From positions 1-64,000 of the IMG/VR virus record IMGVR_UViG_3300032334_000488: DNA of 64,000 nt; one strand, written 5' to 3'. This DNA comes from a virus. Position numbers and translations under genes: made by a program. Below the pieces are notes generated by a model. The model was given only the letters and a program-made list of their open reading frames with translations. It searched no databases and was not told where the DNA came from. Below are positions 20,752-37,156 of this stretch, in pieces; position 1 is the first letter of the stretch; every line of letters starts with the position of its first letter.

Positions 20752-20922
20752 CTTATCTGATAACAGCAATTAACAGGGTGGGATTAGTATCTCACCCGTA
20801 GTTTACCATTTTCTTTTGGCGAGAGTACTTCGCAAAGTTAGCAGATGCATGATAGGTTCCCACACGCAATACTAAGCAACCCACAGAGGGGTATTTAGAC
20901 ATTTATAGAAATGGTAGGGGTT

Positions 20923-22956
20923 ATGACAACATTATCTTTCAAACTGACTGAGGATTTCATTGGACCGTATCGCTCCAAGAAGGCGCCGTTCGGTTACCAA
21001 GATGCAGCGGGCAACTCAGTAGGAGAGATTACTTTCTTGCGTACCTATTCTCGCCTCAAGGCAGATGGTACGAAGGAGACATGGGTTGATGTATGTGAAC
21101 GTGTGATTAACGGAATGTATTCTTTGCAGAAAGATCACGCAAAGACAAACCGCCTGCCATGGTCAGATGCAAAGGCAGCAGCCTCAGCCAAAGAAGCATT
21201 CGATCGCTTATGGAACTTGAAGTGGACACCCCCAGGACGTGGTCTCTGGGTAATGGGAACTCCACTGGTCAATGAGCAACGCAACTCAGCAGCACTTCAG
21301 AACTGTGCTTTTGTTTCAACTGGCTCCATGGTCAAGACAGACCCAGCCAAGCCATTCGCATTCCTTATGGAAGCATCAATGCTCGGAGTGGGCGTTGGCT
21401 TTGATGACAAGGGAGCAGACAAGGACTTTGTTATTTATGCACCACAAGGAGATTACGCCTATGACATCCCAGACACCAGAGAAGGTTGGGTTGAATCAAC
21501 AGCCGCCCTCATCAATTCCTACCTCAAGCCAGATACGAAGGCTCCAGTATTTAATTACGAAGCGATCCGTCCAGCGGGTGAACCAATCCGCACCTTCGGT
21601 GGAACCGCAGCAGGAGCAGACCCTCTAATCAAACTGCACCAGTACATCCACGAACTGTTCAAGGATCGTGCTGGTCAGAAGTTAACTCGTCGTGACATTG
21701 CAGACATTGGCAACATGATCGGGGTATGCGTTGTCTCTGGCAACGTCCGTCGCTCTGCTGAACTATTGATTGGTCGCATCGATGATGAAGAGTTCTTGAA
21801 CCTAAAGAACTACGAGAAGTATCCAGAGCGCCTTACTCATGGCTGGATGTCTAACAACTCTGTGGCTGTCAACGTGGGAGATAACCTCGATGGAATCATC
21901 GAAGGTATTGCTCGTAACGGAGAGCCAGGAGTTATCTGGATGGACATCTCCAAGCAATACGGACGCCTTGCTGATCCAATCAACAACAAGGACTGGCGTA
22001 TTGCAGGGTACAACCCATGTGCTGAGCAATCATTAGAGTCATACGAATGCTGCACATTGGTAGAGACTTACCTCAATCGTCACACAGACCTTGAAGACTT
22101 TAAGCGCACATTGAAGTTCGCCTACCTCTATGCAAAGACTGTAACTCTTCTTCCAACTCACTGGGAAGAGACCAACGCAATCATGCAACGCAATCGTCGC
22201 ATTGGTACATCTGTCTCTGGTGTTGCAAACTTTGCAGACAACAAGGGACTTCCAGTTCTGCGTCAGTGGATGGATGAAGGCTACAAGGTCATCAAGTCAT
22301 ACGACACTAACTACTCAGAGTGGCTTGGTATCCGTGAGTCAATCAAGATGACAACAGTAAAGCCATCAGGAACAGTTTCAATTCTTGCTGGAGAATCTCC
22401 AGGAGTTCACTGGACTGTAGGTGGTCAGTACTTCAATCGTGCTATCCGCTTCTCTAACTCTGATCCAATGCTTCCGTTGTTCAAACTTGCTAACTACAGA
22501 GTAGAACCAGCAAGTGAGTCTCCTGATACCACTTCGGTTGTCTTCTTCCCTATCAAGTCAGAGGCTAAGCGAAGTGAGAAGGATGTAAGTATCTACGAGA
22601 AGATGGCACTTGCTGCTACTGCTCAACGCTACTGGTCAGACAACTCTGTCTCTGTAACAATCTCATTTGATCCAGAGAAGGAAGCCTCGGCTATTGGTAC
22701 GGCTTTGCACATGTACGATGGTCAACTTAAGACTGTCTCATTCTTGCCTAGTGGTAACCATGTCTATCCTCAGATGCCTTACACACAGATCACTGAGAAG
22801 GAGTACGAAGAGCAGGGCGTAATGCAACTGTTCCCGATTGACTTCTCTGGTGTCTATGCAGGAATGGCTTCGGACGCAGTGGGCGAGGCTTACTGCGTGA
22901 CGGACGCATGTGAAGTAAAACTTATTATGGAGAACACTAAGGATACTAACAACTAA
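20923..22956 (+). CDS. nrdJ: class II (adenosylcobalamin-dependent) ribonucleotide reductase
   Basis: FLRTYSR, PPGRGLW, LQNCAF, GNVRRSA, NPCAE, TTVKPSGT, C-terminal C....C. Confidence 0.93.
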   Translation: MTTLSFKLTEDFIGPYRSKKAPFGYQDAAGNSVGEITFLRTYSRLKADGTKETWVDVCERVINGMYSLQKDHAKTNRLPWSDAKAAASAKEAFDRLWNLKWTPPGRGLWVMGTPLVNEQRNSAALQNCAFVSTGSMVKTDPAKPFAFLMEASMLGVGVGFDDKGADKDFVIYAPQGDYAYDIPDTREGWVESTAALINSYLKPDTKAPVFNYEAIRPAGEPIRTFGGTAAGADPLIKLHQYIHELFKDRAGQKLTRRDIADIGNMIGVCVVSGNVRRSAELLIGRIDDEEFLNLKNYEKYPERLTHGWMSNNSVAVNVGDNLDGIIEGIARNGEPGVIWMDISKQYGRLADPINNKDWRIAGYNPCAEQSLESYECCTLVETYLNRHTDLEDFKRTLKFAYLYAKTVTLLPTHWEETNAIMQRNRRIGTSVSGVANFADNKGLPVLRQWMDEGYKVIKSYDTNYSEWLGIRESIKMTTVKPSGTVSILAGESPGVHWTVGGQYFNRAIRFSNSDPMLPLFKLANYRVEPASESPDTTSVVFFPIKSEAKRSEKDVSIYEKMALAATAQRYWSDNSVSVTISFDPEKEASAIGTALHMYDGQLKTVSFLPSGNHVYPQMPYTQITEKEYEEQGVMQLFPIDFSGVYAGMASDAVGEAYCVTDACEVKLIMENTKDTNN

Positions 22957-22977
22957 TTCTTGCGATACACTGACGGT

Positions 22978-23418
22978 ATGAACAGATTATGCCGTCAGTG
23001 TAAGCAAGATAAACCTATTGAAGATTTTTACGAAGATCGTCGGGTTAAAGCCGATGGTCGTAGGGCTAAATGTATTGCTTGTCTGACCAATGGCAGACCA
23101 CCAGGACCTGTTGCTATGAACCCACTTACTCGTCACACTATTGATGCTAAGGGCTGTCACATCTGGTCTGGTTCTGTGCATAAATCTGGTTATGGAAGCA
23201 TTAAGTGGAATGGTAAGGCTACTGTTGCTCATAGAGTTATCTACTCCCTTGTTAAAGGGGAGATTCTTCAAGGACAAGTTATCGATCATCTTTGTAATGT
23301 AAAACTTTGTGTTAATCCAGATCATCTTGAAGCAGTTTCCTATTCAACTAACACCCAAAGGGCTTGGGATCGTCAACATTGCTCTACCTGTACTTGTATT
23401 AACTTAACTCCTTCTTAA
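22978..23418 (+). CDS. HNH endonuclease
   Basis: CHIW.G...GYG...AHR...IDHLC...CVNPDHLE; leaderless TACACT-6nt-ATG. Confidence 0.88.
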   Translation: MNRLCRQCKQDKPIEDFYEDRRVKADGRRAKCIACLTNGRPPGPVAMNPLTRHTIDAKGCHIWSGSVHKSGYGSIKWNGKATVAHRVIYSLVKGEILQGQVIDHLCNVKLCVNPDHLEAVSYSTNTQRAWDRQHCSTCTCINLTPS

Positions 23419-23617
23419 TAGCCTGAATAGTTGGACAGGGATACAAATCTTGGCAAGCCCAGCAAGTTTCATCAGGTAAAGCGTGAATGATTGGCTTATG
23501 TAATTCCACTACTGCACGAAGGGCATTGGTGTTTGCAAGTAATTTTTCAAATAAATGTTCGTGCTTCAAGCCGTTGGTTGAATCATCTATGTAGGCAATT
23601 AACTCATCGTGTGTCAT
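23399..23617 (-). CDS. hypothetical phage protein
   Basis: ALRAVVELHKP...C..C...YPCPT; SD AGGAG. Confidence 0.7.
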   Translation of the reverse strand: MTHDELIAYIDDSTNGLKHEHLFEKLLANTNALRAVVELHKPIIHALPDETCWACQDLYPCPTIQAIKKELS

Positions 23618-23653
23618 TATTACTCTCCTTTTGGTAGGGCTTTTGCTATTGCT

Positions 23654-24121
23654 TTAGCAATCGCACTCTTCTCCTGACTGCAGAATGCCTTCACCTTGGC
23701 ACTTATAACATGCTTCTGGTATGGCTTTGCAATCAGGCTCATGGTTTTTAATTATCTCGTTTACATACCCTGCCGTTGAAATCTTCTCTGCATCTGTTTG
23801 GTGAAGCCAATCCCAGATGTGCTGGTCTATTCTCAGATTGCATTGAGGACAGGGCAACACAATGTTCTTCTTCTCTTCACTGCCGCTAATGTAGGTGCTG
23901 ATTCTCCAGCCCAACTGAACTAACTTTCGCCAAAAGAGTCCTTCTACTTCAGTATCAGTAAGAGGCTTCTGTCTCCAAGGCTTATCGGTAAAGGGCAGTT
24001 CATCTTGAACCCACTGCTTGTCCTTTTGGTATGGCTTTGGAAACTGCTCTTGCTTCTGGTATGGCTTTGCTTTCTTTGGCTGGTCTGACTGCCAGTCGTG
24101 AATACTTCTGCCTTCCGCCAT
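23654..24121 (-). CDS. hypothetical zinc-finger protein
   Basis: CPQC, CYKC.G.G. Confidence 0.65.
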   Translation of the reverse strand: MAEGRSIHDWQSDQPKKAKPYQKQEQFPKPYQKDKQWVQDELPFTDKPWRQKPLTDTEVEGLFWRKLVQLGWRISTYISGSEEKKNIVLPCPQCNLRIDQHIWDWLHQTDAEKISTAGYVNEIIKNHEPDCKAIPEACYKCQGEGILQSGEECDC

Positions 24122-24178
24122 CTTGCTCCCCTAACTAACTAACTTCACCTGGCTGCCAGGTAGAGTTACTTCGAAGAT

Positions 24179-24202
24179 AGCCCCGCCATTTCTGACGGGG
24201 CT
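24179..24202 (-). terminator. stem-loop after recombinase/transglycosylase operon
   Basis: agccccgcca...tgacggggct. Confidence 0.55.
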
Positions 24203-24213
24203 TCTCCTATTGC

Positions 24214-24798
24214 TTATGCTGTTCTTCCTAGTGCTTTCGCTTTCGCTTTTGCTAGGGCTTTTGCATGTGCTTCAGGGAATTGCTTCAGCCACTTCTTAAC
24301 CACTGGGTTGCTGATGCCCTTCCATGATCTCCAGTCTTTGCCTTTTGCGCTCATGAAGTAAGCGATCTTGGCGTTCACCACAGGATTCAACAGTTGAGCG
24401 TTGTACTCTAAATTGAACTTTTCCCTGCGATCTTGTCCCAATGAGTTAATCATGTTGACTTGGAACAACCCAAATGAGTTATCCCCTGTCTTACGATTGC
24501 CGTTATGGGAGAGAGGGTTTCCATGTGATTCTTTCATAGCGATTGCCCACGCATAGCGTAAGGCTTTGCCTTGAAACCCAACTGCGTGCAACAGGTCAAC
24601 CAACTCAGTCTTAGTGAGGTGGTCGGCGTTATTGAACGGGGCTAGGGCTCGCTCTTGGTATTGCTTCTGCAAGACTTGCGCTTCGGCTCTTGAAGGTGAG
24701 AAGGCTGGTGGCATTACCACTAACCCACTACCAACAAACATCGCCGTAAATAGCGATCCGAATACGATCTTGCCTCTTCTTGTTAGATTCATCATCAC
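24214..24798 (-). CDS. membrane-anchored/secreted lytic transglycosylase (lysozyme-like)
   Basis: N-terminal hydrophobic helix; AIAMKES.GN, GLFQVN, NP..NA..A, W..W. Confidence 0.85.
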   Translation of the reverse strand: MMMNLTRRGKIVFGSLFTAMFVGSGLVVMPPAFSPSRAEAQVLQKQYQERALAPFNNADHLTKTELVDLLHAVGFQGKALRYAWAIAMKESHGNPLSHNGNRKTGDNSFGLFQVNMINSLGQDRREKFNLEYNAQLLNPVVNAKIAYFMSAKGKDWRSWKGISNPVVKKWLKQFPEAHAKALAKAKAKALGRTA

Positions 24799-26057
24799 TC
24801 CAAAAAGTCATTGACACTTTCTGATGCCTTTGACTGGTTGTGACGAAGGCGATGTAGGTATCGCTCTGTCGTCTTTATCGACTGATGCCCTAAGCGTTCC
24901 TTGACCTCATGCACATCTACCCCGCTTTTTAGAAGTTGGGTAGCGTTAGCGTGTCTGAGGTCATGGGTTCTAGGACTCCAGCCGATGCCTGACTTGGCTA
25001 TTGCCTTGTTCCATGTAGTTCTCCATACATCTCGTGGTAGGTGGCTCGTATGGTCGATGAACCTCTGTTGCTTTTGGTATGGCTTTGTCTTTTGCCTGTG
25101 CTTTCGCACCGACTCTCGACAAGCCTCGCATCGGCAACGCCCATGTGTATAGGCGTACAGAGTTCCATGCTGGAACAGTTTTCCGTCTTTGGCGAATGGT
25201 CGCCTAGACATTTCTCCACGAGAAGTCTCTAGTTTACCTGTTGTTAAGATGATCGTTCTTGGGAACAACAGGTCATCTTTTGATAGGGCTTTTGCTATGA
25301 CATAGCCCTGAATCTCTTGTAGTAGGGCTTTGCTTAACATAAGGCTTCGCTTATGACCCGACTTTGTGGCTTCTACGACTAGAAACCTACTGGTATGGCT
25401 TGCCCCTAGATCGCTGACTCGCCTTTGGACATAGACCTCGCCTGTCTTTAGGTTGATGTCTTTGACCCTGAGTTCTGTGGCTTCTCCGAATCGGCAACCT
25501 GATGCGACTAGGAATCGGGCGAATAACTGCGCCCCCTCAGTCGGTAGGTGCTGGATAATCGCCTTAAACTCTTCGGGCTCAACAACATTGGCGATGTCAG
25601 AATGCTTCGCCTTAATACGAATCCCATGTGTAGGGTTCTGAGTTAATTCTCCTGTATCGACTAACTGGGAGAGGGCAGACCCTAGCGATGCCTTGATCTG
25701 ATTGAGGGTGGCTGAACCTATCCCCTGACCCCTGAGGGCTTGAAGTAACTCTTGAATCGCCCGTCTATCGATCGAAGTTACTTTGCGATCTCCGAGGGCT
25801 GGCAGGACATAGCGATCAAGGACTGACCGATAGCCCTTGCGAGTGATCGGCATGAGATCGGCGGTCGGAAGCCATGAATCGATGTAGGTCGATAGGGTAA
25901 ATACAGCCCTAGAAGGCTCGCTAACGCCCGATACCTCTGCTTTTGAGGCGTGATACATAGCATCGATCTTCGTGTCCCATGTACCTGCTGAGAGGCGTTT
26001 TCCGCCCTTTCGGTAATAGCCTGTAAACCTATCCCCACGCTTTACGACATAAGCCAT
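24795..26057 (-). CDS. tyrosine recombinase/integrase with zinc-finger insertion
   Basis: GCRFGE, TKSG, HDLRH, LGH, TERY; inserted HGT...CRCEAC. Confidence 0.92.
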   Translation of the reverse strand: MAYVVKRGDRFTGYYRKGGKRLSAGTWDTKIDAMYHASKAEVSGVSEPSRAVFTLSTYIDSWLPTADLMPITRKGYRSVLDRYVLPALGDRKVTSIDRRAIQELLQALRGQGIGSATLNQIKASLGSALSQLVDTGELTQNPTHGIRIKAKHSDIANVVEPEEFKAIIQHLPTEGAQLFARFLVASGCRFGEATELRVKDINLKTGEVYVQRRVSDLGASHTSRFLVVEATKSGHKRSLMLSKALLQEIQGYVIAKALSKDDLLFPRTIILTTGKLETSRGEMSRRPFAKDGKLFQHGTLYAYTHGRCRCEACRESVRKHRQKTKPYQKQQRFIDHTSHLPRDVWRTTWNKAIAKSGIGWSPRTHDLRHANATQLLKSGVDVHEVKERLGHQSIKTTERYLHRLRHNQSKASESVNDFLE

Positions 26058-26071
26058 GATTCCCCCCTTCC

Positions 26072-26104
26072 ATGTTACTGGTGAGTAATGTTACTGGTGA
26101 GTAA
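26072..26104. repeat. tandem 16 bp repeat, each unit containing TTACT-GGTG-AGTAA
   Basis: atgttactggtgagta x2 just upstream of recombinase start. Confidence 0.85.
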
Positions 26105-26114
26105 CTTCGAATGC

Positions 26115-26150
26115 AAAAAATAGCCCCTAGCCCGATTAGGGGCTAGGGGC
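26115..26150 (-). terminator. intrinsic terminator of early operon
   Basis: gcccctagccc / gggctaggggc stem with A-run on + (U-tract on minus). Confidence 0.75.
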
Positions 26151-26232
26151 GATAGTGACTGTGGGCTTAGGGAATCTGCTTATGTGCGCTTGAAGTAACT
26201 TCTACCAGCCCCAGATCAGGGCTGAAAGTTAG

Positions 26233-26463
26233 TTAGGGATAAAGAATCTCTTCCCAATCCGAATCTTCAAGATCAAGTAACTCGGTAGGCAGAACCTTCC
26301 AGCGATCATCGATCGCAATAAAGTCCTCATTGATAAACCAATCAACATCAACGCCCCACTCACCAATAAATAATTTAGCGGTGTAGGTGTTTCCATTCAT
26401 TGGAAACTCAATCAAGTGTTCTGATGCGGTGTTTGCGCTACTAACAATTACATGAGCGACCAT
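26233..26463 (-). CDS. acidic hypothetical protein
   Basis: ORF track. Confidence 0.55.
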   Translation of the reverse strand: MVAHVIVSSANTASEHLIEFPMNGNTYTAKLFIGEWGVDVDWFINEDFIAIDDRWKVLPTELLDLEDSDWEEILYP

Positions 26464-26467
26464 TTAT

Positions 26468-26659
26468 TTATTTCTCCATTTCTATTTGTGTTGTTCGATA
26501 AGAGTTCCACTCATCGATTGTTTCTTGCTTCCATAGTGGTCGATTGCCGATCATGTGATCGGGGTCGGGAAGGGTGTTTCGCTTTCGATAGGTGTAGATC
26601 GTGTCGATCTTTAGCCCTGTTTGTTGCGCGATGTCGGTAGTAGTGAGCCAGTCCTTCAA
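26468..26659 (-). CDS. AlpA/excisionase-like HTH protein
   Basis: WLTTTDIA...TIYTY....LP.PD...G..PLW. Confidence 0.78.
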   Translation of the reverse strand: MKDWLTTTDIAQQTGLKIDTIYTYRKRNTLPDPDHMIGNRPLWKQETIDEWNSYRTTQIEMEK

Positions 26660-27141
26660 TTCGATGCACCAGTTTTCTGTTTAGTTTCATTAGGTTTTTT
26701 TCCAATCGTAAACATTTTGAAATCGCCAAGCATTCGATCGAACCATAAATAAGGAAGATCGTTTTCAACATTGAAGTTGTAGTAATCAGCATCTTTGCGA
26801 TTTAAGTTGCTCTGATGAGATTGATGAAATGACGAATCACCTAACCACACAGGCACTTCGCATTCAGGTAGTAACGAATGAACGGCAACGAATCGATCGA
26901 GCATGGTGTCTTTGTAACCACGATCAATCCACTCTTTGCAGATTGCGATTCCGTATTCACACAGAAGTCGTTCATGTCCACGCCACATCTTTGTAGCAGG
27001 GTGATTAGTCCAGCCCTTAGTCTCACCACGCAACGCTTGAAGTATTTGCCACGCCTCTACTCGTTGCTTGCCTAATCGTTTGTAATCGAGTGCTTTAGCA
27101 GTCTCTACGAAGTCAGGGAAAGGTAAGAATGTATTAACCAT
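26656..27141 (-). CDS. pyrimidine-dimer DNA glycosylase-like protein (DenV/MSMEG_6728-like)
   Basis: TFLP.PDF...A..LD.KRLGKQRVE, HPA..MW, H.SH.SNL.RKD. Confidence 0.85.
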   Translation of the reverse strand: MVNTFLPFPDFVETAKALDYKRLGKQRVEAWQILQALRGETKGWTNHPATKMWRGHERLLCEYGIAICKEWIDRGYKDTMLDRFVAVHSLLPECEVPVWLGDSSFHQSHQSNLNRKDADYYNFNVENDLPYLWFDRMLGDFKMFTIGKKPNETKQKTGASN

Positions 27142-27328
27142 TTGTAACCTCATCTAGTGTGTGCTTGATGAAATCATCGATTACTTCCCACATAGTGTCA
27201 TTGGTAGTAAGCCATTCTCTGATCTTTGCCCACTCATCGTCAGTAAGTACTCTCCCTACTAGTTGAGTTGCTTCTTCACGAGTAAATAGCACGATGTCAT
27301 TTGGATTAAGCATTAGTTGTCCCTTCAT
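27134..27328 (-). CDS. hypothetical early protein
   Basis: ORF track. Confidence 0.55.
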   Translation of the reverse strand: MKGQLMLNPNDIVLFTREEATQLVGRVLTDDEWAKIREWLTTNDTMWEVIDDFIKHTLDEVTNG

Positions 27329-27591
27329 AGTCCCAGTTTGATTTAACCCAGTTAAGTGCAGATAACCAATTAGTTAGATTTTCTTTGCCGAGATAAGGAA
27401 ACTCATTGGCTTTTAGTTCATGTTCGATGAACGCAATTTCGTAATTGATGTCCTCAATAGTTTTCATTACTGATCTCCATTCATGTCGTTATCGTGATCG
27501 ATGATGATTACCTCTATGTCACTAGGGCAACGAGTTACTTCTGCAACGCCACCATTGACCTCTATTACTACCTGATTTTTTGCATACATAA

Positions 27592-28008
27592 CTACAACGC
27601 CCTTTCTTGAATGTGTTGTGCATGAAGATCACACAAGATACTTCCTTTATCGTCACCTCTTGCATACCCTTCATACTTACAGATTTCGCAAGTGTGAACA
27701 GAACAACGATACTTTCCGTCAGTACCGATCTTTAATTCTTCGGGAGTATCCCAACCACAAAAATCGCACTCCAATCGTTTGCCGTCTAGTTTTTGATTCT
27801 CTAGCAAGCGTTCAAGTCGTGCAATCTTTCTTTCTAATTCAAGATTAGTAAGAGTAGTTCCATGTTCTTTGGGAGGTTTAATTCCTAACTTCTCACACTC
27901 TTCTACAAGTGTTTCTCGATACTCCTGTGCATAACGCAGAGATAGTCGTTGCTTTGCACGAGAGACTGCTTTGTTACGAAGTTTTTTATCTTGTTCGTTT
28001 AGTTCCAT
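27592..28008 (-). CDS. coiled-coil + zinc-finger protein
   Basis: CDFC, CSVH, CEIC, CDLH. Confidence 0.65.
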   Translation of the reverse strand: MELNEQDKKLRNKAVSRAKQRLSLRYAQEYRETLVEECEKLGIKPPKEHGTTLTNLELERKIARLERLLENQKLDGKRLECDFCGWDTPEELKIGTDGKYRCSVHTCEICKYEGYARGDDKGSILCDLHAQHIQERAL

Positions 28009-28283
28009 TAGTATTCTCCAATCACAGACACATACTGACGATACTTTCGATTCTCTCTACGGCGTAGCAACGCTCTCTCGTGATCTGTTAGACCACCGAA
28101 GATGCCGTACTGAACACCATTCTCTAGTGCGAATGTCAGACACTTATTCTTTGTGACCGCATCGCATTGACCACAGATTGATTTCGCTTCTCGAATCTTT
28201 TCATGCTCTGTTGGGTCAGGAAAAAAGATTTCAGGGTCGATACCTTTTGTCTGACATGGTGCATTGATAATCTCAATTTTCAT
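28008..28283 (-). CDS. whiB: WhiB-family transcription factor (second copy)
   Basis: C...DPEIFFP...AKSIC..C......CL...GIFGG. Confidence 0.9.
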   Translation of the reverse strand: MKIEIINAPCQTKGIDPEIFFPDPTEHEKIREAKSICGQCDAVTKNKCLTFALENGVQYGIFGGLTDHERALLRRRENRKYRQYVSVIGEY

Positions 28284-28614
28284 CTGTACTCCGATCTTTG
28301 TACTGCTCAGGATTTGCGATCACATAATTAACGAACGAGTCCATGACATTTGTTAAGTCCTCAGGTTCTAACTCTGCATACTTCAAAAGAATCTCGATCA
28401 TGTGCAGGAATCCCCAAATAAGCATTTCGGGTTCGATCTCTTTATCTTCCATAACAGAGTTCAAGTGTTCATTGGCTAGATACTCTTTTACCTCTTGCGG
28501 AAGGCTATCTTTGCGATCAGAATCTACTTTGAATCCACGAACGATCTTTAGAAACTCGTTAGCGATCGTGATCGATTTAATTAAATCAGTTTGGTGTGAT
28601 GATAGTTCAGCCAT
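28273..28614 (-). CDS. hypothetical early protein
   Basis: ORF track with SD. Confidence 0.6.
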   Translation of the reverse strand: MAELSSHQTDLIKSITIANEFLKIVRGFKVDSDRKDSLPQEVKEYLANEHLNSVMEDKEIEPEMLIWGFLHMIEILLKYAELEPEDLTNVMDSFVNYVIANPEQYKDRSTDEN

Positions 28615-28840
28615 TTAATTTCTCCTTTAATTGATTGAGGTGTTCCATGTCTTTTTCGTACCCTTTAATCATGTGACTTTCTACTTTACGAATGATCTCT
28701 CGTGACACTCCGTAACGACCTGCAACGCTTGCTAACGATTCACCATTTATTCGTGATGAAAGAATGTCGTAGAGTTCGCCTAAAGTAAATGGGTGTATTT
28801 TTGATTTGATTTTGTTGAAGTTTTTATTGTTTGAAAGCAT
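28607..28840 (-). CDS. sigma-70 region 4-like HTH protein
   Basis: SLASVAGRYGVSREIIRKVE. Confidence 0.6.
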   Translation of the reverse strand: MLSNNKNFNKIKSKIHPFTLGELYDILSSRINGESLASVAGRYGVSREIIRKVESHMIKGYEKDMEHLNQLKEKLNG

Positions 28841-28864
28841 TTGTAATCCTCTCTAGGTTATGGA

Positions 28865-28983
28865 ATCGAGTAGGGGCAGGTACGACTACGCCGTAACTAT
28901 CGAATGCGATCATGATCGCCCTTAGCAGGTAAGGAAGGGGAAATGATTAACCCCTATGAACCCTGCGTTGACCCCTACTCGAT
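28865..28983 (-). other. intergenic multibranch stem-loop
   Basis: 12 bp perfect closing stem atcgagtagggg/cccctactcgat with internal hairpins. Confidence 0.6.
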
Positions 28984-29157
28984 AAAGTTATTTTCTTATT
29001 ACTTTCTGAACACAGTTAAAGCAGAACCACAACACATTCTGACCGCTTGAATCAGTTATGTATTTACCTGATGAAGTAACTTCATCATTGTTGCAATCAT
29101 CGCAATTAGTTAGTTCGTGAGGTTGTACTTCACGAATGATCTGTGCGTATCCCATTG

Positions 29158-29343
29158 TTACACCTCTTCAATCTTCCCAGTTTGTTTGTACAACGCTTGT
29201 GCGAGTCTTGTTCCTTTTCTAACTCTTGGAGTTGCAGTTGACTTTACATCGCACCATACGAATCCCTCTTGGTGTCTAGTGATCTGACCAAGTATCTCGA
29301 ACCATTGTTCATCGACCTCAGCAGTTATTGTGTATTTAGCCAT
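29158..29343 (-). CDS. hypothetical early protein
   Basis: ORF track, SD GGAG. Confidence 0.55.
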   Translation of the reverse strand: MAKYTITAEVDEQWFEILGQITRHQEGFVWCDVKSTATPRVRKGTRLAQALYKQTGKIEEV

Positions 29344-29479
29344 GAGTTATCTCCCCTGCAAACAAGGTTCACAGATTAAGTATCCTTCTTTTGCATACAT
29401 TTCATTGACATCGTGCTGATCTCCACACTCGAAACAATCTCGAATGTGACGATACTTTTTGTCTAACAGTTTTGATTGT

Positions 29480-29713
29480 CTAAGAGTTATTGGCATCTAA
29501 ATCTCCTTCATCTAGCATTTTTGCATTCTGCCAAACAGTATCGTTGACATGACCCACACAGACATCGAGTGCATCATCACAGATGTTAATAGCATCGTCT
29601 GACAGTTCCTCGAAGTCTCTCGAATCCCACCAAGTAACTACGAGTGTCTCATCGAGTGCATTCCCATAGTTGCGTTGCAGAATCTCGATCGTCTCTTTTA
29701 CAGTTGCGATCAT
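29480..29713 (-). CDS. hypothetical early protein
   Basis: ORF track, SD AGGAG. Confidence 0.55.
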   Translation of the reverse strand: MIATVKETIEILQRNYGNALDETLVVTWWDSRDFEELSDDAINICDDALDVCVGHVNDTVWQNAKMLDEGDLDANNS

Positions 29714-29880
29714 TTATTTTCTCCTGTCACTTCATCGATCATCTTTGTACATGAGCCATAGCCCAACCAGTTGCCACCCTCGCCTACATAGCAGACATCA
29801 CGAGTTGCATAAGTAAATAACGACAACACAATAAGTGCAGGAATGATTACCAGCACAATCCAACCTCTACGAGTTAACAA

Positions 29881-30357
29881 TTAAGCATCTCCATTCTGTT
29901 TAGCCATTCGGTATTTCCATGAGTTACTAGCGATGTGAGTACGGATTCTGTGACACTTACCGCAACGAACATCGCACTTTGCGATTTCGTTTTCTAGTTT
30001 CTTGATTGTCATGCCAGTCAGCATGAATGCGTGAGCGATGTTGTAACGCTTCTTTGCGCCTCGTACATGGTCGAAGTCGAGTGCCAGTACATCTCTCTCG
30101 CCACAGTCAACGCATGGATTAGATTTCAAGTGATTGTAAATCCATTCCTTGATCTCTTTTCTTCGCTTCAAGTGCCACTCGACTTTGTAAGAATCTTCAC
30201 AAGGTATGCAGTATGAAGTAACTCCCGACTTAGTTTTTGCAGATCGAAACTCACTTAAGTACTTTAATGAGTCACACCGCTTGCACTCCTTGATTCCGAT
30301 AGCAAGAAAGTTTTCTCGCTCAATAGTCTTTGCAGACTTTCGGTTTCTAGTTGTCAC
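29881..30357 (-). CDS. HNH-like endonuclease
   Basis: CVDCG...DFDH...CDVRC..CHRIRT plus N-terminal CxxC pairs. Confidence 0.75.
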   Translation of the reverse strand: MTTRNRKSAKTIERENFLAIGIKECKRCDSLKYLSEFRSAKTKSGVTSYCIPCEDSYKVEWHLKRRKEIKEWIYNHLKSNPCVDCGERDVLALDFDHVRGAKKRYNIAHAFMLTGMTIKKLENEIAKCDVRCGKCHRIRTHIASNSWKYRMAKQNGDA

Positions 30358-31058
30358 GCAATCTCCTTCTTGTATAAGCGACTAAGTGGAAGTGTTTTGT
30401 ATTTCAGATCGTGATGATTAGAAGGTGTCACATAAGCGACAATAAATCGTGACCCAGTTGTGTCAACGATTACGCCTTTACGCAAGCGACCATGACCCTG
30501 AATGAATACCTGATCGTTGATTACGGCGTTGTATGGAACGAAGTCACTCATGTTTGATGCGTAAGTCATTCGCTCAGTAGAGATCGAGATTAGTTGATCT
30601 TGAATCGCAACGATCTTTGCTTCAAGATCGATTCGCTTCTTTGCGAGTTTGATTGTTTTCTCGATCTTGTCTGATGTGTGACTGCCACAGATAATTGCGT
30701 GTTCACTATTCCAGTTCAACGGCTTATCTGTGTGTTGTCCGTCAATACGCCAAGCCCATGCAAGAAAGATCGTATTGAATTGCAGATCACCACGAGATTT
30801 AATCTCTGATGCAGGTGCAGAATTAGGAAATGTGTTTCCGTTTACATCGAAGATGTCACACCACACATGATGAATGCCTTGCACAATGATTGAATGACCT
30901 TTGTACTCGATCTCTTGATAGGTATTAGGTAATTGCTTTAGTTCAATCACATGATCGAATCTCTTGTTACGCAACCATGTTGAGTAGTGCGTACTACCTT
31001 GATAGTTCTTGTAGTACTTATCTTGAATCTCTACGAATCGATCTAGGAAGTAACTCAT
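30354..31058 (-). CDS. hypothetical early protein
   Basis: 234 aa ORF, coupled. Confidence 0.65.
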   Translation of the reverse strand: MSYFLDRFVEIQDKYYKNYQGSTHYSTWLRNKRFDHVIELKQLPNTYQEIEYKGHSIIVQGIHHVWCDIFDVNGNTFPNSAPASEIKSRGDLQFNTIFLAWAWRIDGQHTDKPLNWNSEHAIICGSHTSDKIEKTIKLAKKRIDLEAKIVAIQDQLISISTERMTYASNMSDFVPYNAVINDQVFIQGHGRLRKGVIVDTTGSRFIVAYVTPSNHHDLKYKTLPLSRLYKKEIA

Positions 31059-31676
31059 TTATGCCACCATGTCCTGTGCTTCGAGAACCTTCTCGATTAG
31101 TGATTGAAGAGTGCGTACATCGATGTAGCAACCACCACTTAATTTGATTTCGCCATTCTCTTGACGGCGATTGCGAATCTCGAAATCAAGTTTGTCTGCA
31201 CGACTACCGATGATTGATCGAAGAGATTCTTTTACTGCATCAATAGATCGTTGAGCGTTTGCTTGTTCGATCTTCTCTAGTTGTTCCTTCGCTTCGCGCT
31301 CTGCCTTCCATTGAGCCTCACGAGCCTTCTCTTCGGCTTCTTCTTTAGTCCAGCGAGTTTCAAGAGTTGCGTAGTCAGCAACGATGTCCTGCGCTCTTGC
31401 AATCCAGTAGATGTCACCCTGTGTAGTTCCAGCCCAATCAGAAGATTTGACTAGATAACCGACTGAACGACTTCCCTTAGGTGCAGAAGTAAATTGTGCA
31501 TCAGAAGGATTATCTGATCGATACACCTTGTATTCGTATTTTTCTAGTGACACTAACTCTGCGTTAGCAACGGCTCTGCGTTGTACACGATCAGGATTCT
31601 TTTTATCTTGTGATGAATAATCCCATGAAGGAATAACGCCGTACTTAATACCAATTTGTAGTTCTGCTGATTTCAT
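31059..31676 (-). CDS. hypothetical early protein
   Basis: 205 aa ORF with SD AAGGAG. Confidence 0.7.
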   Translation of the reverse strand: MKSAELQIGIKYGVIPSWDYSSQDKKNPDRVQRRAVANAELVSLEKYEYKVYRSDNPSDAQFTSAPKGSRSVGYLVKSSDWAGTTQGDIYWIARAQDIVADYATLETRWTKEEAEEKAREAQWKAEREAKEQLEKIEQANAQRSIDAVKESLRSIIGSRADKLDFEIRNRRQENGEIKLSGGCYIDVRTLQSLIEKVLEAQDMVA

Positions 31677-31771
31677 TTATTAGTTTCTCCTTAGTTGTAA
31701 TTGTTTAAGTGGTGTGGTGCGCCAGCCTTCCACGAATAACGCACCACACCGAGTCACCTAGAGAGTGACAG

Positions 31772-33769
31772 TTAGTTGTTTACAAGACGGCGAGAGATCG
31801 CGTACTTCACGATTGATTTCGCCATGTAAACAAGATCGAATGGATTACGAATTACAGAAGCGATTTCGCAATAGTGCGATGTCTGATCTGTAAGAGGTTG
31901 CACCGCTTCTCCGTTTTCAGGAATGTAAGCGAATGCAGTAAGCACACCAGCACGAGCCATGCGCTTGATAGTTTCGTGATTAGCATCTTGATTGCCCGAC
32001 CATTCTCCGTCAGTAATTGCGAAGAAGATTCGTACAGGTTTCTCAGTTTCAGCAAGCAATTTAGTTGCGTACTTAATTGCTTGATCTGCTGATGTACCGC
32101 CACCAGTACCAGCATCACGAATCGTGTTACCGACACGATCAGTTGCACGATAGAGAGTGTTTGCATGATCGTTGAAAGTGATAACAGTTGTATTTGCACT
32201 AACGCGATCAAGTGCCTTCTTAATTGCGTACATGGCTTTGTATGCACTAGAGGCTTTGTGTCCTGACATTGAACCTGAGTTGTCTAACAAGATCACGCAT
32301 TCAATCTCAGTCGCATCTTCACGACCCTCATTCCATTGATCGAATACAGTATCGAGATCATCGCCACGTAAATAACGATGTGCAGATAAACGACCTTGTG
32401 ACTCGTACTTATCCCATGCAGGGTCGAACGATGCTCTCAATCGCTCTAACTCACGACCGAATGACAACGATGCTTGAAATGTATTTGCATCAGGTGCTAA
32501 GTCGTGAAAGCGATCTAGTTCAGGTTCTTTTGAGTTGTTAGTAGCAAGAGAAGGTAAGCCACCAATCTGTCGCAAGATGTCGTTGATTTCAGTTTCATTA
32601 GAATCAAGAATGTTTTCTAATAGATCACCAATCAATGTGTCGATCATTTCGCCAGCAGAATTACCAGCAGAATCAGAAGAAGAAGGCGAATCAAAATCTT
32701 GATCTGAATCCTGATCTGAATCTGTATCATCGAAATCGAAATCGATGTCGTTGATGTCAACATCGATAACAGGTTTTGATTTCAGTTGTTCAGCCAGTTG
32801 TGCATCATCTTCTTTGTCGAGTTGTTGTGATCGATCACGATCTTTTTCTTGCTTCTTTGGTGGAACAGGTCGTGAGTTTGCAGAGGATTCCAAGCCCTCT
32901 TGTGGTCGCTTGCCATGACCGAATGGGTCATTGATGCGAACGATTACATCGCCCTCTTCACCAGCCTGTGCAGGGCGCACAGAGCCATTCTCGCCACTAC
33001 CTGAACCATTACCTGAGCCATTACCTTTTGGAAGTAACTCGTTAAATCGCGCAATTAGTTCCTTTCCTTTTTCAGTATCAGCAGGGAATAGAAGAGTGCG
33101 GTATTCATCGACTACTGCACAGATTTCATCGATCTGATCTTGATGAGGATAGGCGTTACGAGATTGCGCTCTTAACTCCACAGGTAAGTATCTACGACCA
33201 CGCAATAGCGGATAAGAGTTAGTGAATGCCTCTTTGTTATCAACGAAGTGAATCAAGATTGTGGCAGTAAACCAATCAATCGTTGACGGATACTTTGAGG
33301 TAAAGAGAGTTTCGATTCTCTGATCTTCTAGTGCGTTGTATGCGGTGAAGTAATTGTTATCTCGTACATAATCGAAGAGTTCTGAACCCTCACGAGATGT
33401 GTAGAGAATGTGGCTGATCTCGTGAAGATCAAGCCCCTTGATACCAGCGATTGATTTAGCATCGTTGAGATCACCGATAGTGCGAGAGTTGAAAGTAACC
33501 GATGATGCACCTGACCAAGCAGGTGCTTCCATTGGTGAGTTCTCGACAGTCACAGTCACTTTGCGAAATGTGAATGCAGAATTAACACGACCGAAGAATT
33601 GTGTGAATCGTTCTAGTCGTTGCTTCTTCTCTTCTGCTTTCAACAGTTGTGATCGTAGTGACTCACGAGTCTCACCGAGAATGTCGAGTTCCCATTCTGC
33701 GACTGCATCGTTGTAATCCATTGTTACTCCATTTCGTTTACATGACGGACAATTACCACAAGCACACAT
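31772..33769 (-). CDS. VWA-domain protein with HExxH region (CobT-like MoxR partner)
   Basis: HEISH, NALED.RIE, acidic linker, MIDAS DNSGSM, GGGT, ITDG. Confidence 0.85.
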   Translation of the reverse strand: MCACGNCPSCKRNGVTMDYNDAVAEWELDILGETRESLRSQLLKAEEKKQRLERFTQFFGRVNSAFTFRKVTVTVENSPMEAPAWSGASSVTFNSRTIGDLNDAKSIAGIKGLDLHEISHILYTSREGSELFDYVRDNNYFTAYNALEDQRIETLFTSKYPSTIDWFTATILIHFVDNKEAFTNSYPLLRGRRYLPVELRAQSRNAYPHQDQIDEICAVVDEYRTLLFPADTEKGKELIARFNELLPKGNGSGNGSGSGENGSVRPAQAGEEGDVIVRINDPFGHGKRPQEGLESSANSRPVPPKKQEKDRDRSQQLDKEDDAQLAEQLKSKPVIDVDINDIDFDFDDTDSDQDSDQDFDSPSSSDSAGNSAGEMIDTLIGDLLENILDSNETEINDILRQIGGLPSLATNNSKEPELDRFHDLAPDANTFQASLSFGRELERLRASFDPAWDKYESQGRLSAHRYLRGDDLDTVFDQWNEGREDATEIECVILLDNSGSMSGHKASSAYKAMYAIKKALDRVSANTTVITFNDHANTLYRATDRVGNTIRDAGTGGGTSADQAIKYATKLLAETEKPVRIFFAITDGEWSGNQDANHETIKRMARAGVLTAFAYIPENGEAVQPLTDQTSHYCEIASVIRNPFDLVYMAKSIVKYAISRRLVNN

Positions 33770-33771
33770 TG

Positions 33772-34653
33772 TTAAGCCGTTGCGTGTTCTGTTGTGATCT
33801 TTTCAGCATCGAGTCCAAGTTCTTCTCGAATGTTGTATGAAGTACCTTCAAGAAGCATCTTGACTGCGGGGCGTTCTTCATCAGAGAAGTTGTTTATGAA
33901 TACATCGCAAGCGAAATCGAATGACAATCCTTTTGCAACCTTCTCGAATGTTTTCAAGATACGAGGTGATACAGGTGTCTCGAAGATAGTGCCACGATCT
34001 GATGCGTGATCGTCTCTGCGAGATGTTGATCGCATTCCGTTTGCGAGTTCCAAGAGTGAAGAGGATTTGATGATCTTCTTCTCAATCGTTGTGTCGTAAT
34101 CGAATCGCAATTTAATTTCGAAGCGATCTTTCCAAGCCTCGTTAAGTAACTGAGTACCTCGATAGTTTGGATTCTGATCTGCAACCACTAATAGATCAGG
34201 GTGTGCGTTGATTACTTCGTTGTCATGTGACATGAGAGTAATTGAACGGCGATCATCGAGAAGGCTCATTAAGTACTGTGAGAGGTTCTTAGGGGCGTTG
34301 TTGAGTTCGTTGATAAGTAGCAAGCCACCCTCACGAACGATCTTTGTAATTGCGCCGTCAACCCACTTTAGTTTGCCGTCAGCATCAGGGAACAAACCAC
34401 CAATTAATTGTGTGAAGTCGATTGCAGAGTTACATGGAACAGCGAAGAAGTTCATGTGTCGCTTTGATGCGTAAGCAAGTGCCGATGTTGTCTTGCCAGT
34501 TCCAGCATCGCCTTCGATTAAGATGTTCATGTTGTGAGCAAGTGCGAAGTCGTACATGGCATCTTCTGTAACGCCACCAGTAAAGGTGCGTGGAATGTAG
34601 TGCGATGTCTTTTCTAGCGTTGGAATAAATAGTGATTTGTTTTCTGTAGTCAT
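33772..34653 (-). CDS. MoxR/CbbQ-type AAA+ ATPase
   Basis: GDAGTGKT, WVDG, LLINE, NPNY.GT..LN.A..DRF, SPR. Confidence 0.88.
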   Translation of the reverse strand: MTTENKSLFIPTLEKTSHYIPRTFTGGVTEDAMYDFALAHNMNILIEGDAGTGKTTSALAYASKRHMNFFAVPCNSAIDFTQLIGGLFPDADGKLKWVDGAITKIVREGGLLLINELNNAPKNLSQYLMSLLDDRRSITLMSHDNEVINAHPDLLVVADQNPNYRGTQLLNEAWKDRFEIKLRFDYDTTIEKKIIKSSSLLELANGMRSTSRRDDHASDRGTIFETPVSPRILKTFEKVAKGLSFDFACDVFINNFSDEERPAVKMLLEGTSYNIREELGLDAEKITTEHATA

Positions 34654-34677
34654 GTTGTTTTCCGTTTCTCTAGGTGT

Positions 34678-34944
34678 TTAGTTTGTTTGGTAGTCGGTTG
34701 TTACTGCATCAGGGTTTTTAACGATGATCTTTGATGCGAGGTACAGATCATCGAGTTGTGTAGTTAGTTCCTGAAACTCGTTGAAGATGTTGCACTCTTC
34801 TTCAATACGAGATTCGATCTTTGGTAGTACAGATTGAAGCACCGCAACGATCTGTGGTGGTGCGCCATTTTCAAGTGCGTTGTCGAGTGCCACCTCAACC
34901 ATTGTGTGAAGTAATCCGAGTTCATCGAGATTGAATTGACTCAT
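34678..34944 (-). CDS. hypothetical early protein
   Basis: ORF track. Confidence 0.55.
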   Translation of the reverse strand: MSQFNLDELGLLHTMVEVALDNALENGAPPQIVAVLQSVLPKIESRIEEECNIFNEFQELTTQLDDLYLASKIIVKNPDAVTTDYQTN

Positions 34945-35039
34945 TAGATACCTCGATTCGATTGCGATAGTTCGTGGAATAAGTTTTCGATCAGTACACC
35001 AACAACGCCAGCGATTACTGCAAGAATGAAAATAACCAT

Positions 35040-35327
35040 TTAGTCCTCATCTCTATCTATCCAAGCATTTAGGAATAGTCCGTCAACGGCGTTGATCGCA
35101 GTTACAGTTGTTGAATTACGAAATTGCACACCAGCAGGTAGTTCAATTTCGAGATCGTATTGCTCATTGTTAACCGCCTTGATTGCTTCCTTAGCAACGG
35201 CGATCATAAAGTCAGGAATCGGTGGATAGCAGTTATTACCGAAATGAATTGCTAATTGTTGTTCGAGATCAATAACAAACTCACCGCTTGCTAGATCGTT
35301 TGCGAAAGTAGAACCCATGTTATGCAA
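35040..35327 (-). CDS. hypothetical early protein
   Basis: ORF track; HF..NCYPP. Confidence 0.6.
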   Translation of the reverse strand: MHNMGSTFANDLASGEFVIDLEQQLAIHFGNNCYPPIPDFMIAVAKEAIKAVNNEQYDLEIELPAGVQFRNSTTVTAINAVDGLFLNAWIDRDED

Positions 35328-35613
35328 CCGCCTTTCTTACATAGTTTTGATGTTTTGATGTTGTAGTTGAGTATTTGCAGTTAGGCATAAACCAACCGCT
35401 ATTAGAATGCCAAGCGATTGGTGTTGAGTATGAGTACACAATAAAGTCAGGTCGATCTAACTCCAGTTGATCTCGAAACTCTTGTGGAAGTCTGCCGAAA
35501 TCGTAAGCGTATTCATTTGGCGCAATAACAACGCCGTAGAGATTGTTACCTGTGAATGCAACGCGATCAACGATTAGATCGCCAGCCTTTGTGTTTGATG
35601 TTCTAGTTGTCAT
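35320..35613 (-). CDS. phage early protein
   Basis: VYSYSTPIA...YSTTTSKHQ; SD GGAG. Confidence 0.7.
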   Translation of the reverse strand: MTTRTSNTKAGDLIVDRVAFTGNNLYGVVIAPNEYAYDFGRLPQEFRDQLELDRPDFIVYSYSTPIAWHSNSGWFMPNCKYSTTTSKHQNYVRKAVA

Positions 35614-35726
35614 TTAGTTTCTCCGTTACATAGTCGGCAGATAAGAGCAGGTTTGTCGTTTAGTTTTACGAACCATAGATCGGTTGAAGGTTTAGCGCAG
35701 ATAGCGCAGTCAAGAATGATTGACAT

Positions 35727-35900
35727 TTATTTCGCCACTTTTACAATGTCGAGTTGTTTGATGAAGTCGAGTGTGTAGTTATCTGATTTAGTTGAGTAGA
35801 AGCGAGTTCCGTCATTTAGTAGTAGATCGATAGCGATCTCTGTAATACGACCACGAGCAACGATGTTGCCCTTTGCATCTATGAATGTTTGTTGTTTCAT
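35727..35900 (-). CDS. small early protein (57 aa, not in ORF track)
   Basis: MKQQTFIDAKGNIVARGRITE...; coupled to upstream stop. Confidence 0.55.
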   Translation of the reverse strand: MKQQTFIDAKGNIVARGRITEIAIDLLLNDGTRFYSTKSDNYTLDFIKQLDIVKVAK

Positions 35901-36142
35901 TAGTTGTTGTCCAATCCTGTAGTCAAAGCCTTTTGCAGTTCTGCATTAAATACTCGTGTTGTAGGTGCTTCTCCATAAGGAGTGAAGTTTGTTGAGAGAT
36001 TGACACGAACGAATCCGTCTCTATAAAACTTGATTCGTTTTTTAGAACTTAGAAAACCTTCGTATGAATAAAGATACTTTCCTGTGTTGGTGTCATAGAA
36101 ATCCCAAACACCTGTTGTTCCAATTACTGTTTTGGTTGTCAT
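35900..36142 (-). CDS. first gene of leftward early operon, hypothetical
   Basis: ORF track. Confidence 0.6.
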   Translation of the reverse strand: MTTKTVIGTTGVWDFYDTNTGKYLYSYEGFLSSKKRIKFYRDGFVRVNLSTNFTPYGEAPTTRVFNAELQKALTTGLDNN

Positions 36143-36159
36143 TTTTTATTCCGTTTCCT

Positions 36160-36780: not shown

Positions 36781-37128
36781 CCAATTTGCCCCTAGAGGAT
36801 TCTGAAATCGGTGGTCACACATCGAGTGCGCTACTAGGAGAATTGAACCACATCTGTACGACAAATTGGGACAGGCTGATAAGAGGGGTTTTTGGTGTCA
36901 CGCTCAAAAAATCCCACCCCACAGAATGGGCGCAGAAGAACGATCGCCCCATGAATAGGGTTCTTATTCCAGTATTGGGGGTAAAGCCCTGAGAGAGCCT
37001 ATAGAAGCCGTATAAGGGCTATTGAGCGTGAGGCTGATAGGGGCAGTTTGAGCGTGGGGTGTTGCGTGGGTCACACCTGCCGAAGTAACTGCCAAGATCG
37101 CTAGTTCCGCCAAGTAAGTCCGAGCAAA

Positions 37129-37150
37129 TAGTTGAAAGTTCAATTACATT
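37129..37150 (+). promoter_or_regulatory. palindromic operator-like site overlapping leaderless -10 (TACATT)
   Basis: TAGTTGAA-AG-TTCAATTA; -10 six nt before ATG 37157. Confidence 0.4.
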
Positions 37151-37156
37151 ACTCCG

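Follow-up and report, generated by a model that had tools for sequence, protein, structure and literature searches.

Why is one short DNA word written over and over, always on the same strand, through the protein-coding genes around a phage integrase? We addressed this question in a stretch of 64,000 bp (the window), which is the first 64 kb of the 87,211-bp, 87%-complete IMG/VR virus record IMGVR_UViG_3300032334_000488. In the window, a leftward operon encoding a tyrosine integrase, a lysozyme-like SLT_3 protein (SLT) and the zinc protein p155 faces a convergent operon for a ribonucleotide reductase (RNR). An earlier note, made from the letters of this DNA, had listed nine minus-strand copies of a polar motif around the integrase gene, and we found all nine at the places it gave.

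Searching the window with the 16-bp word AAAGCCMTACCARAAG yielded 11 matches at up to two mismatches, five of them perfect. All were on the minus strand within 22691-25402, compared with 0.14 matches expected and a maximum of 1 in 100 dinucleotide-preserving shuffles. Across the whole 87,211-bp record there were 0 forward and 11 reverse matches with none outside this interval, and a control word read backwards gave 0 and 0, demonstrating the clustering for which the note had proposed a whole-record scan. The repeating unit is 12 bp long, AAGCC(A/C)TA(C/G)CA(A/G), and the 16-mer comprises this unit and the beginning of the next; the word is A/C-rich and predicted by folding to be unstructured. 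A 20-mer reported to be identical at 23711 and 24051 indeed occurs exactly twice in the window (23711-23730 and 24051-24070). Eight of the 11 copies lie inside genes and, as had been claimed, all three reading frames are used: the motif starts at codon position 1 in four copies (KAIPE, KALAK, KALSK and KALLQ), at position 3 in three (KPYQK) and at position 2 in one (SHTS, with two mismatches). The remaining copies are one intergenic, one over a stop codon and one antisense in RNR. The deviations of individual copies from the word are conserved, site by site, between genomes. A full-text literature search found no description of such a word array, which is no proof of its absence from print.

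The note had further proposed that selection acts on the DNA rather than on the peptides. When the codons of p155, SLT and the integrase were shuffled synonymously 2000 times, the mean number of hits was 0.30 without mismatch, 1.21 with at most one and 2.59 with at most two, and no shuffle attained the actual counts of 4, 6 and 8, respectively. The word is also built from codons that are rare in this genome, with GCC making up 13% of Ala, ATA 10% of Ile and CTA 17% of Leu codons. Furthermore, synonymous-site conservation was evident in relatives: at residue-conserved columns of an alignment of 64 distinct integrase genes, synonymous entropy was 0.50 bits in the 11 motif columns versus 1.01 bits in the 220 others (permutation P 0.0019). 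Thus, the codon shuffles, the rare codons and the low synonymous variation reveal selection on the DNA letters themselves and not only on the protein, and amino-acid composition fails to explain the motif. We conclude that the word is a conserved cis-acting DNA signal with a 12-bp unit and a 16-bp extended form.

We then asked how widely the signal is distributed. A first survey, an exact-pattern scan of viral contigs, returned more than 114 contigs, with lone hits at about the chance level by our own rough estimate; about 35 loci showed 8-13 co-oriented hits within 2-3 kb and the gene order RNR > < p155-SLT-INT-AlpA. An integrase-alignment scan, in which the best 80 of 253 relatives were kept, gave 71 new loci (652,546 bases) with 552 forward and 0 reverse hits. 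At least three hits were present in 68 of these 71 loci, and 551 of the 552 hits lay between position +500 of the integrase gene, near its middle, and the end of RNR. A scan seeded with a 53%-identical integrase reached two deeper clades, X and Y. Clade Y, whose integrases are 44-48% identical to that of the window, contributed 34 loci and 231 hits, all of them forward and 227 within the integrase-to-RNR interval. The single orientation described in the note thus holds for 11 of 11 copies in the window and for 783 versus 0 hits in 105 related loci. Because loci were not de-duplicated and some contigs carry two locus ids, the locus counts exceed the number of independent genomes. In clade X (integrase 47-52% identical; 25 loci) the genes are kept, 23 of the 25 loci are without any hit, and only a diverged unit is found, in the integrase linker alone. 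Five whole related records (76-95 kb) held 42 hits, 40 of them in the array; the two strays were on the other strand with two mismatches. A relaxed position weight matrix slid towards a hexamer pattern of Lys-Ala type, with 1619 matches forward and 28 reverse, and was not used for counts.

At the dispersed sites, each clade uses its own variant of the word: ATACCA in the clade of the window, and ATAGCA in the 61% clade and clade Y. One variant per clade is expected if the sites track one reader. When gene presence was compared with presence of the array, four families occurred in array-bearing clades and were absent within 6 kb in clade X, none of which looks DNA-binding. The AlpA-like gene was undetected by tblastn in clade Y, which keeps the word.

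Copies cluster at the start of SLT (in some clades), in the SLT Lys/Ala tail, in the disordered N-terminal part of p155, past the last p155 zinc ligand and at a bidirectional terminator beside the RNR stop codon. Those in the Lys/Ala tail directly precede a terminator hairpin, and in clade Y this array sits past the SLT stop codon and is therefore kept without being translated. In the integrase, the linker between an inserted CRCxxC zinc finger and the HLPRD motif is itself built from the repeat. Across 116 distinct integrase genes the linker is 24-64 residues long and contains 43, 3 and 141 exact units in the three frames, with the peptides KPYQ, KAxA and SxSK. The clade of the window has KPYQ in one or two units, the 61% clade has KAxA-type peptides, and clades Y and X have SxSK or SLSQ with up to eight exact units. 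Relatives range from 1 to about 11 tandem copies, and one linker (L249) is made of 10.8 copies of 12 bp. The integrase linker, the most informative of these sites, plainly tolerates whatever the DNA encodes there. Altogether the signal is under nucleotide selection, strictly polar, strictly localised, deeply conserved, organised in 12-bp tandem units and independent of reading frame.

As to its function, we favour, tentatively and short of calling it probable outright, a polar, stoperator-like array of predicted protein-binding sites that is private to the integrase operon. We infer protein binding to the word, and with it the reader's identity and effect. A specific reader is suggested by the specified 12-bp unit, tandem arrays with a period of about one helical turn, the clade-wide variants and the permanent linkage to the integrase. 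A polar block or insulator is suggested by the strict polarity together with the position of the array, which lies at the end of an early, restriction-site-free leftward arm and faces a convergent operon; plus- and minus-strand genes converge at 23399-23418, beside the array as the note had said. The sites would be written where the proteins tolerate them: in the linker of the integrase, in the tail of SLT, at either end of p155 and in the terminators. As the reader we would put first the integrase itself, acting through its conserved N-terminal ~50 residues or the inserted zinc finger, and second the small AlpA/Xis-type winged-helix protein. With its sites filled, the array would act as a polar nucleoprotein barrier where the early arm ends distally. 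In the way of mycobacteriophage stoperators, this barrier would halt transcription, or insulate it, between the operons of the integrase and of the convergent RNR. The array could also feed back on int expression.

Several observations weigh against this interpretation. The reader is a candidate only, and its binding is predicted. Clade X, with the word missing from 23 of its 25 loci, conserves the N-terminal region of the integrase to about the same degree, and no covariation with the motif variant is visible for either the zinc finger or the AlpA-like protein. Promoters carry no copy, and the 87%-complete record yielded no Cro/CI-type (HTH_3) repressor. Co-orientation and confinement to a single transcription unit suit an RNA-level signal equally well. 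The part of the array in the Lys/Ala tail and the Ser-rich linker could be kept as low-complexity protein. Finally, similarity among the copies runs past 16 bp, and this sharing of flanks indicates copying as well as selection.

An RNA-level signal, which we consider rather unlikely, survives best among the alternatives. It holds that an RNA-binding factor controlling termination, processing, stability or translation at cistron ends recognises the word in the int-SLT-p155 transcript, or that the word serves as a spare 5' arm for terminator hairpins. Consistent with this, every copy is sense to the leftward operon and the series ends at the operon's terminators, with copies placed just ahead of terminator hairpins or forming their arms. 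A motif-like unit also provides ribosome-binding sites, the word is predicted to be unstructured, and the SLT-tail array persists in clade Y as a 3' untranslated region. However, the distal hairpin does not fit. It is more stable when folded from the plus strand (-28.9 kcal/mol, perfect stem, U-tract) than from the minus strand (-20.8 kcal/mol) and is thus the RNR terminator, in which the motif is present as the 3' half's reverse complement; in addition, the conserved weak copy within RNR lies past the terminators. No complementary partner for the word was found in the record or five relatives, Rfam gave no match beyond two chance-level hits, and a single protein reading 12-16 specified nucleotides of single-stranded RNA would be unusual. 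As to translation starts elsewhere, a variant of the word resembling a ribosome-binding site was considered as a genome-wide start-associated sequence and rejected, being found only locally.

A related possibility, which we regard as unlikely, is a strand-specific boundary signal written through genes. Its reader would see the 12-nt unit on one strand only, close the early arm and set integrase expression, and the integrase gene would carry the signal's core within its own linker, using any frame that happens to be open there. The recognised strand could be the transcript, the non-template strand of the transcription bubble or the DNA threaded into the cell.

The recombinase arm sites that the note had placed first are less likely than either of these, and we doubt them. 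Here the N-domain of the integrase would bind copies arranged around a crossover core inside the array, for example in the gap between SLT and p155, as in a canonical attP. In support, the integrase has a conserved N-terminal extension of ~50 residues ahead of its SAM-like domain, which gave no match to a Pfam arm domain, and five copies or motif-like units surround the non-coding gap in 24023-24261, the only place with attP-like spacing. Arm sites of other elements are likewise direct repeats of ~10 bp, according to the relevant passages of PMC11963761. Against it, the array spans 2.7 kb, mainly within genes, and the gap hairpins vary in stem and loop (GAAA loops included) as terminators do and not as a conserved core would. 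There is no tRNA gene in the window, no tRNA-like piece and no Rfam match. Actinophage attP sites usually lie in a non-coding stretch upstream of int, and here that stretch, the best attP-like one, has no copy. Clade X, moreover, lacks the dispersed copies and still retains the integrase. In 185,579 species genomes, scanned twice, no relative turned up: the first scan gave nothing and the second only a 44%-identical C-terminal piece in an Oscillospiraceae metagenome-assembled genome. Among the 120 integrase relatives listed, the longest contigs were at most 106.7 kb and no integrated form was seen, and none of 130 loci has a junction to other DNA in place of RNR.

The int control region (26058-26232) lacks the word and is organised differently. 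A strong terminator there is followed by a TTGACA box and two tandem palindromic operators that are unique in the record, and every clade conserves this layout, with two or three copies of the operator. A small hairpin upstream of the int terminator is flanked by inverted 9-10-bp repeats (window 26180-26240 and relatives). Their arms covary between clades (AGTAACTT/AAGTTACT versus ACTAACTT/AAGTTAGT) and form either an RNA stem or a palindromic protein site. In the integrase itself, the insertion (about residues 265-345, window 25026-25265) lies between the Lys beta-hairpin and HxxR and carries an invariant H-G..C-R-C-x-x-C zinc-finger-like motif; neither this insert nor the N-terminal 51 residues matched a Pfam family.

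Equally doubtful is the proposal that the copies are recombination anchors, in which the word and a terminator hairpin mark gene and domain borders and let related phages swap, lose and gain modules. Promoter-stem-loop cassettes have been proposed as such module-exchange borders in T4-type phages. Copies do occur where SLT and p155 end, as well as at the distal terminator, and p155 is only 25-69% identical between flanks that are 80-97% identical. In two of ten comparisons with relatives, homology stops right past copies. The copies at 23628 and 23640 survive alone in six of the ten, as a 28-bp island of 93-96% identity whose flanks show no BLASTN homology. The genes for the 72-aa and HNH proteins have entered exactly behind a copy, and what lies distal to p155 varies. 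A single metatranscriptome contig (window 23639-24223; depth 3.95) has the SLT tail and the distal copy joined, only 24 other letters apart, indicating a relative without p155, and another run shows an indel at the p155 repeats. However, tandem arrays of up to ~11 units within the integrase gene are not borders, gene order is conserved, most breakpoints with relatives fall in the middle of p155 away from copies, and the source run has no joints in the array. The breakpoint evidence is itself weak because conserved islands end BLAST matches by construction, and the conserved deviations of single copies between genomes oppose frequent conversion.

The distal junction and p155 had further peculiarities. 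In relatives the 23628-type copy is an arm of the bidirectional terminator hairpin, and the partner arm is lost in the window. The 72-aa and HNH genes (22960-23617) are an insertion compared with most relatives, directly behind the 23628 copy; this insertion broke the RNR terminator hairpin in the window, and one related locus (L113) carries the HNH gene alone. Within the 72-aa gene, the segment 23443-23524 reached summed contig depths of 324 and 157 in runs from other lakes, compared with ~10 nearby, and many loose contig ends lie at 23443, 23493 and 23524. The high depth indicates that this CxxC...PCPT segment is common to many other, more abundant elements. The zinc ligands of p155 (C91, C94, H127 and C131) are invariant. 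The protein matched no Pfam or PHROG family and its best PDB relative had an E of 0.36; its Atlas model was of low confidence (pTM 0.30), with no match above TM 0.40.

More improbable still is that the array is a functionless, slippage-prone 12-bp coding minisatellite, which yields hydrophilic linkers and tails in any frame and spreads by local duplication or conversion and hitch-hiking. Copy number in the linker does vary, as does linker length, two of the three frames yield Lys-rich peptides, the copies are alike past 16 bp, and clade X dropped the dispersed copies while retaining the genes. Opposed to this, the unit has been kept at non-homologous places and across integrases that share only 44-48% identity. 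It also persists in DNA that is not translated, both as non-coding copies and as an array past a stop codon, and the synonymous constraint, the rare codons and the absence of any reverse hit among 783 in 105 loci stand against it.

Very improbable, finally, is a signal for DNA movement, either one at which stepwise genome entry would halt or pause where a first-entering, site-free arm ends, or one for packaging or end processing. The zone 24161-38443 (14.3 kb) is free, or nearly so, of seven kinds of short restriction-type sites, holding 0 of the record's 100 GGCC, 0 of 100 ATAT, 0 of 59 GGATC, 0 of 140 GCAGC, 0 of 79 GCTGC, 0 of 135 CCWGG and 1 of 179 ACGT sites. Its left edge (24152-24160) falls within the array, with the first such sites just past the SLT terminator, so that the straddling described in the note was confirmed. 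This position would fit the note's suggestion of a stop signal for first-step injection, a polar word would suit a one-way machine, and the large terminase is 52% identical to that of the Streptomyces phage BRock, a phage with long terminal repeats. Other parts of the suggestion did not hold. In the source run (sequencing runs were compared as assembled contigs only), contig depth was level over the edge at 11.2, 11.6 and 11.9 and one 3970-base contig spans it, which rules out a terminal-repeat boundary at this site. Two complete relatives assemble as circles of 94.7 and 95.5 kb, and in both the depletion is much weaker and the array is kept. The left end of BRock has no comparable array, and the contig ends of 130 related loci were scattered, with no hot spot and no foreign junction. 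Terminal repeats by analogy with BRock were therefore rejected, given the lack of comparable repeats at its left end and the flat depth. The T5 signal also differs in form: the pertinent parts of 10.1101/866236 describe it as untranslated, with inverted repeats and DnaA boxes.

Other features of the zone were noted. GANTC is enriched in it (79 versus 46.8 expected), and its right edge is sharp (38444-38449) and lies within a 500-bp non-coding region. In the gene-free region 38021-38526, a direct repeat of 27 bp stands at 38099 and 38316 and, in part, a third time at 38198; a 10-mer recurs in tandem at a distance of 12 bp (38296 and 38308), and there is an inverted repeat of 14 bp (38151/38187). 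The region could have a control role, act as an origin or be one end of the genome. Over the whole record, GCTAGC is found 0 times versus 16.9 expected, GGATCC once versus 16.9 and GGCC 100 times versus 225; this shortfall indicates that restriction-site avoidance reaches beyond the early arm. A search for an over-represented 8-mer in the genome gave no clear pattern.

Three further candidates were discarded. The KOPS/Ter-like sites of the note are at odds with a single local, co-oriented group that has no opposed counterpart in the record or five relatives. For an iteron origin, relatives do have tandem arrays, but there is no initiator gene nearby and no AT-rich unwinding element, the richest 80-bp window being 67.5% A+T compared with a genome 99th percentile of 68.75%. 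A centromere of the parC or tubC type was rejected on two counts: the record encodes no CbiA/ParA-type ATPase (ParM and TubZ were not searched), and the array lies in genes at the end of an operon.

The features of the locus are collected in the table below.

Table. Copies of the word and neighbouring features of the integrase locus, in window coordinates
Feature	Position	Strand	Remarks
Class II-like RNR gene	20911-22956	+	Converges on the integrase operon together with the HNH gene
Weak copy, 2 mismatches	22691-22706	-	Antisense in the 3' part of RNR; identical 16-mer at the matching place in five related whole records
72-aa gene	23399-23617	-	Open reading frame coordinates
Perfect copy, intergenic	23628-23643	-	3' end enters the Shine-Dalgarno sequence of the 72-aa gene
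Weak copy	23640-23655	-	12 bp upstream of the 23628 copy; overlaps the p155 stop codon
p155	23654-24121	-	Fast-evolving CCHC zinc protein; copies at flanks and inside
Perfect copy, KAIPE	23713-23728	-	Directly past Cys131, the last zinc ligand of p155
Two perfect copies, KPYQK, 30 bp apart	24023-24068 (starts 24023, 24053)	-	Disordered N-terminal part of p155
Terminator-type hairpin after SLT	24173-24207	-	5' flank 24201-24215 is a motif-like unit
SLT_3 protein, lysozyme-like, secreted, 194 aa	24214-24798	-	
Copy, 1 mismatch, KALAK	24246-24261	-	Lys/Ala tail of the SLT protein
Tyrosine integrase, 420 aa	24795-26057	-	Catalytic domain split by ~70-aa insertion
Perfect copy, KPYQK	25071-25086	-	Integrase linker, between the zinc finger and the HxxR part
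Three weaker copies, KALSK, KALLQ, SHTS	25277-25402 (starts 25277, 25316, 25387)	-	Inside the integrase gene
Two tandem 16-bp palindromic operators	26074-26105		Next to a TTGACA box, past terminator 26123-26150
Strong intrinsic terminator	26123-26150		Upstream of int, in control region 26058-26232
AlpA/Xis-type (HTH_17) winged-helix protein, 63 aa	26468-26659	-	Two genes upstream of int; candidate motif reader

Upstream of the integrase there is also a gene for a DenV-type glycosylase, and a WhiB-family transcription factor gene (28008-28283) lies inside the leftward early operon and marks the host as an actinobacterium. The closest isolate relatives of the integrase are actinophage integrases at ~24% identity. 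No close isolate phage was found, and all that came up was a DNA match of 70% between RNR and an Actinomycetia phage. Freshwater metagenome runs from many studies contain parts of the stretch; runs with small shares of it support no habitat claim. Taken together, the terminase, the integrase, the WhiB gene, the freshwater runs, the absence of an isolate and the two circular relatives identify the phage, by its sequence, as an uncultured freshwater actinophage of ~95-100 kb. The cyanobacterial HIP1 word was discarded as a host clue, with 1 copy versus 0.9 expected. At least 1479 integrase relatives at E 1e-20 or better were counted among 8000 candidates scored, and the phage family is abundant in lakes. 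The array is, as judged from these genomes, a trait of a large family of uncultured freshwater actinophages, and it offers a practical marker to recognise this family and to orient its genomes.

The locus offers a clean natural example of how selection on DNA acts within coding sequence: the signal overrides codon choice in three genes, survives divergence of the integrase to 45% identity and is read in three frames at one site of a protein. The hosts are uncultured low-GC actinobacteria, in which we know of no described phage regulatory circuit. If the array is a private stoperator-like insulator, the motif and its reader would provide a handle on lysogeny control in these phages, and if the integrase is the reader, the integrase-DNA architecture would be unusually extended.

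How does this organisation compare with known systems? Integron attC sites and T4-type cassettes have one structured site per cassette end, with variable content between sites. Here, copies and hairpins lie at gene ends and the content distal to p155 varies, but tandem arrays inside the integrase gene and the conserved gene order speak against that class. The T5 stop signal, in the parts of 10.1101/866236 that concern it, is 1.2-1.7 kb of untranslated DNA in the terminal repeat, with direct and inverted repeats, palindromes and paired DnaA boxes. The two are alike as conserved repeat clusters at the inner end of site-poor, early-gene DNA, whereas ours is one co-oriented word in coding DNA, with no depth step (DnaA boxes were not searched for in the window).

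The iterons of the lambda origin lie inside gene O, in the linker-coding part of the reader's own gene. Our array similarly runs through a tolerant inter-domain linker, which keeps the site linked to the gene, although the gene encodes an integrase and not an initiator, and copies extend into two further genes and terminators.

Small winged helix-turn-helix proteins provide another parallel; they and integrase arm domains are the known readers of co-oriented repeats of this sort next to integrases. According to the sections of PMC11963761 on this group, lambda Xis, P2 Cox, BldC and RdfS oligomerise head to tail on co-oriented repeats spaced about one helical turn apart and also regulate transcription, and the RdfS and BldC sites show little consensus (PMC11963761). 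The present array shares with Xis, BldC and RdfS arrays the co-oriented tandem repeats of about one helical turn and an HTH_17/AlpA gene near the integrase. It differs from those of RdfS and BldC in its 12-bp period and highly specified word, and the AlpA-like gene is undetected in clade Y. Arm-type sites are comparable too: IntS of ICEMlSym has five in a 283-bp attP, in the account given in part of PMC11963761. Like the arm-type sites of lambda, L5 and IntS, the word forms direct repeats of ~10-16 bp that travel with a tyrosine integrase having an extra N-terminal region. Unlike them, the array occupies coding DNA over ~10 times the length of an attP, and neither a core nor an attB nor an integrated form was found.

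The L5-type stoperators named in the note come closest, in part. The portions of PMC6550527 on Cluster A stoperators (L5, Bxb1) describe short, asymmetric, multi-copy sites, mostly in one orientation to transcription, their defining trait, and with motifs that differ among related phages. What did not carry over from the note's suggestion is the genomic layout: all copies lie within 2-3 kb of one operon, 8 of 11 in genes and in any frame, with 12-bp tandem arrays, no promoter copy, no repressor found and a different palindromic operator at the int promoter. What stood is the form of the sites, as our word is asymmetric and keeps one orientation to transcription, and the host phylum is Actinobacteria in both. 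Stoperators are thus the nearest analogue in form, and if the array is indeed a private stoperator-like insulator, polar repressor roadblocks would reach beyond the Cluster A type.

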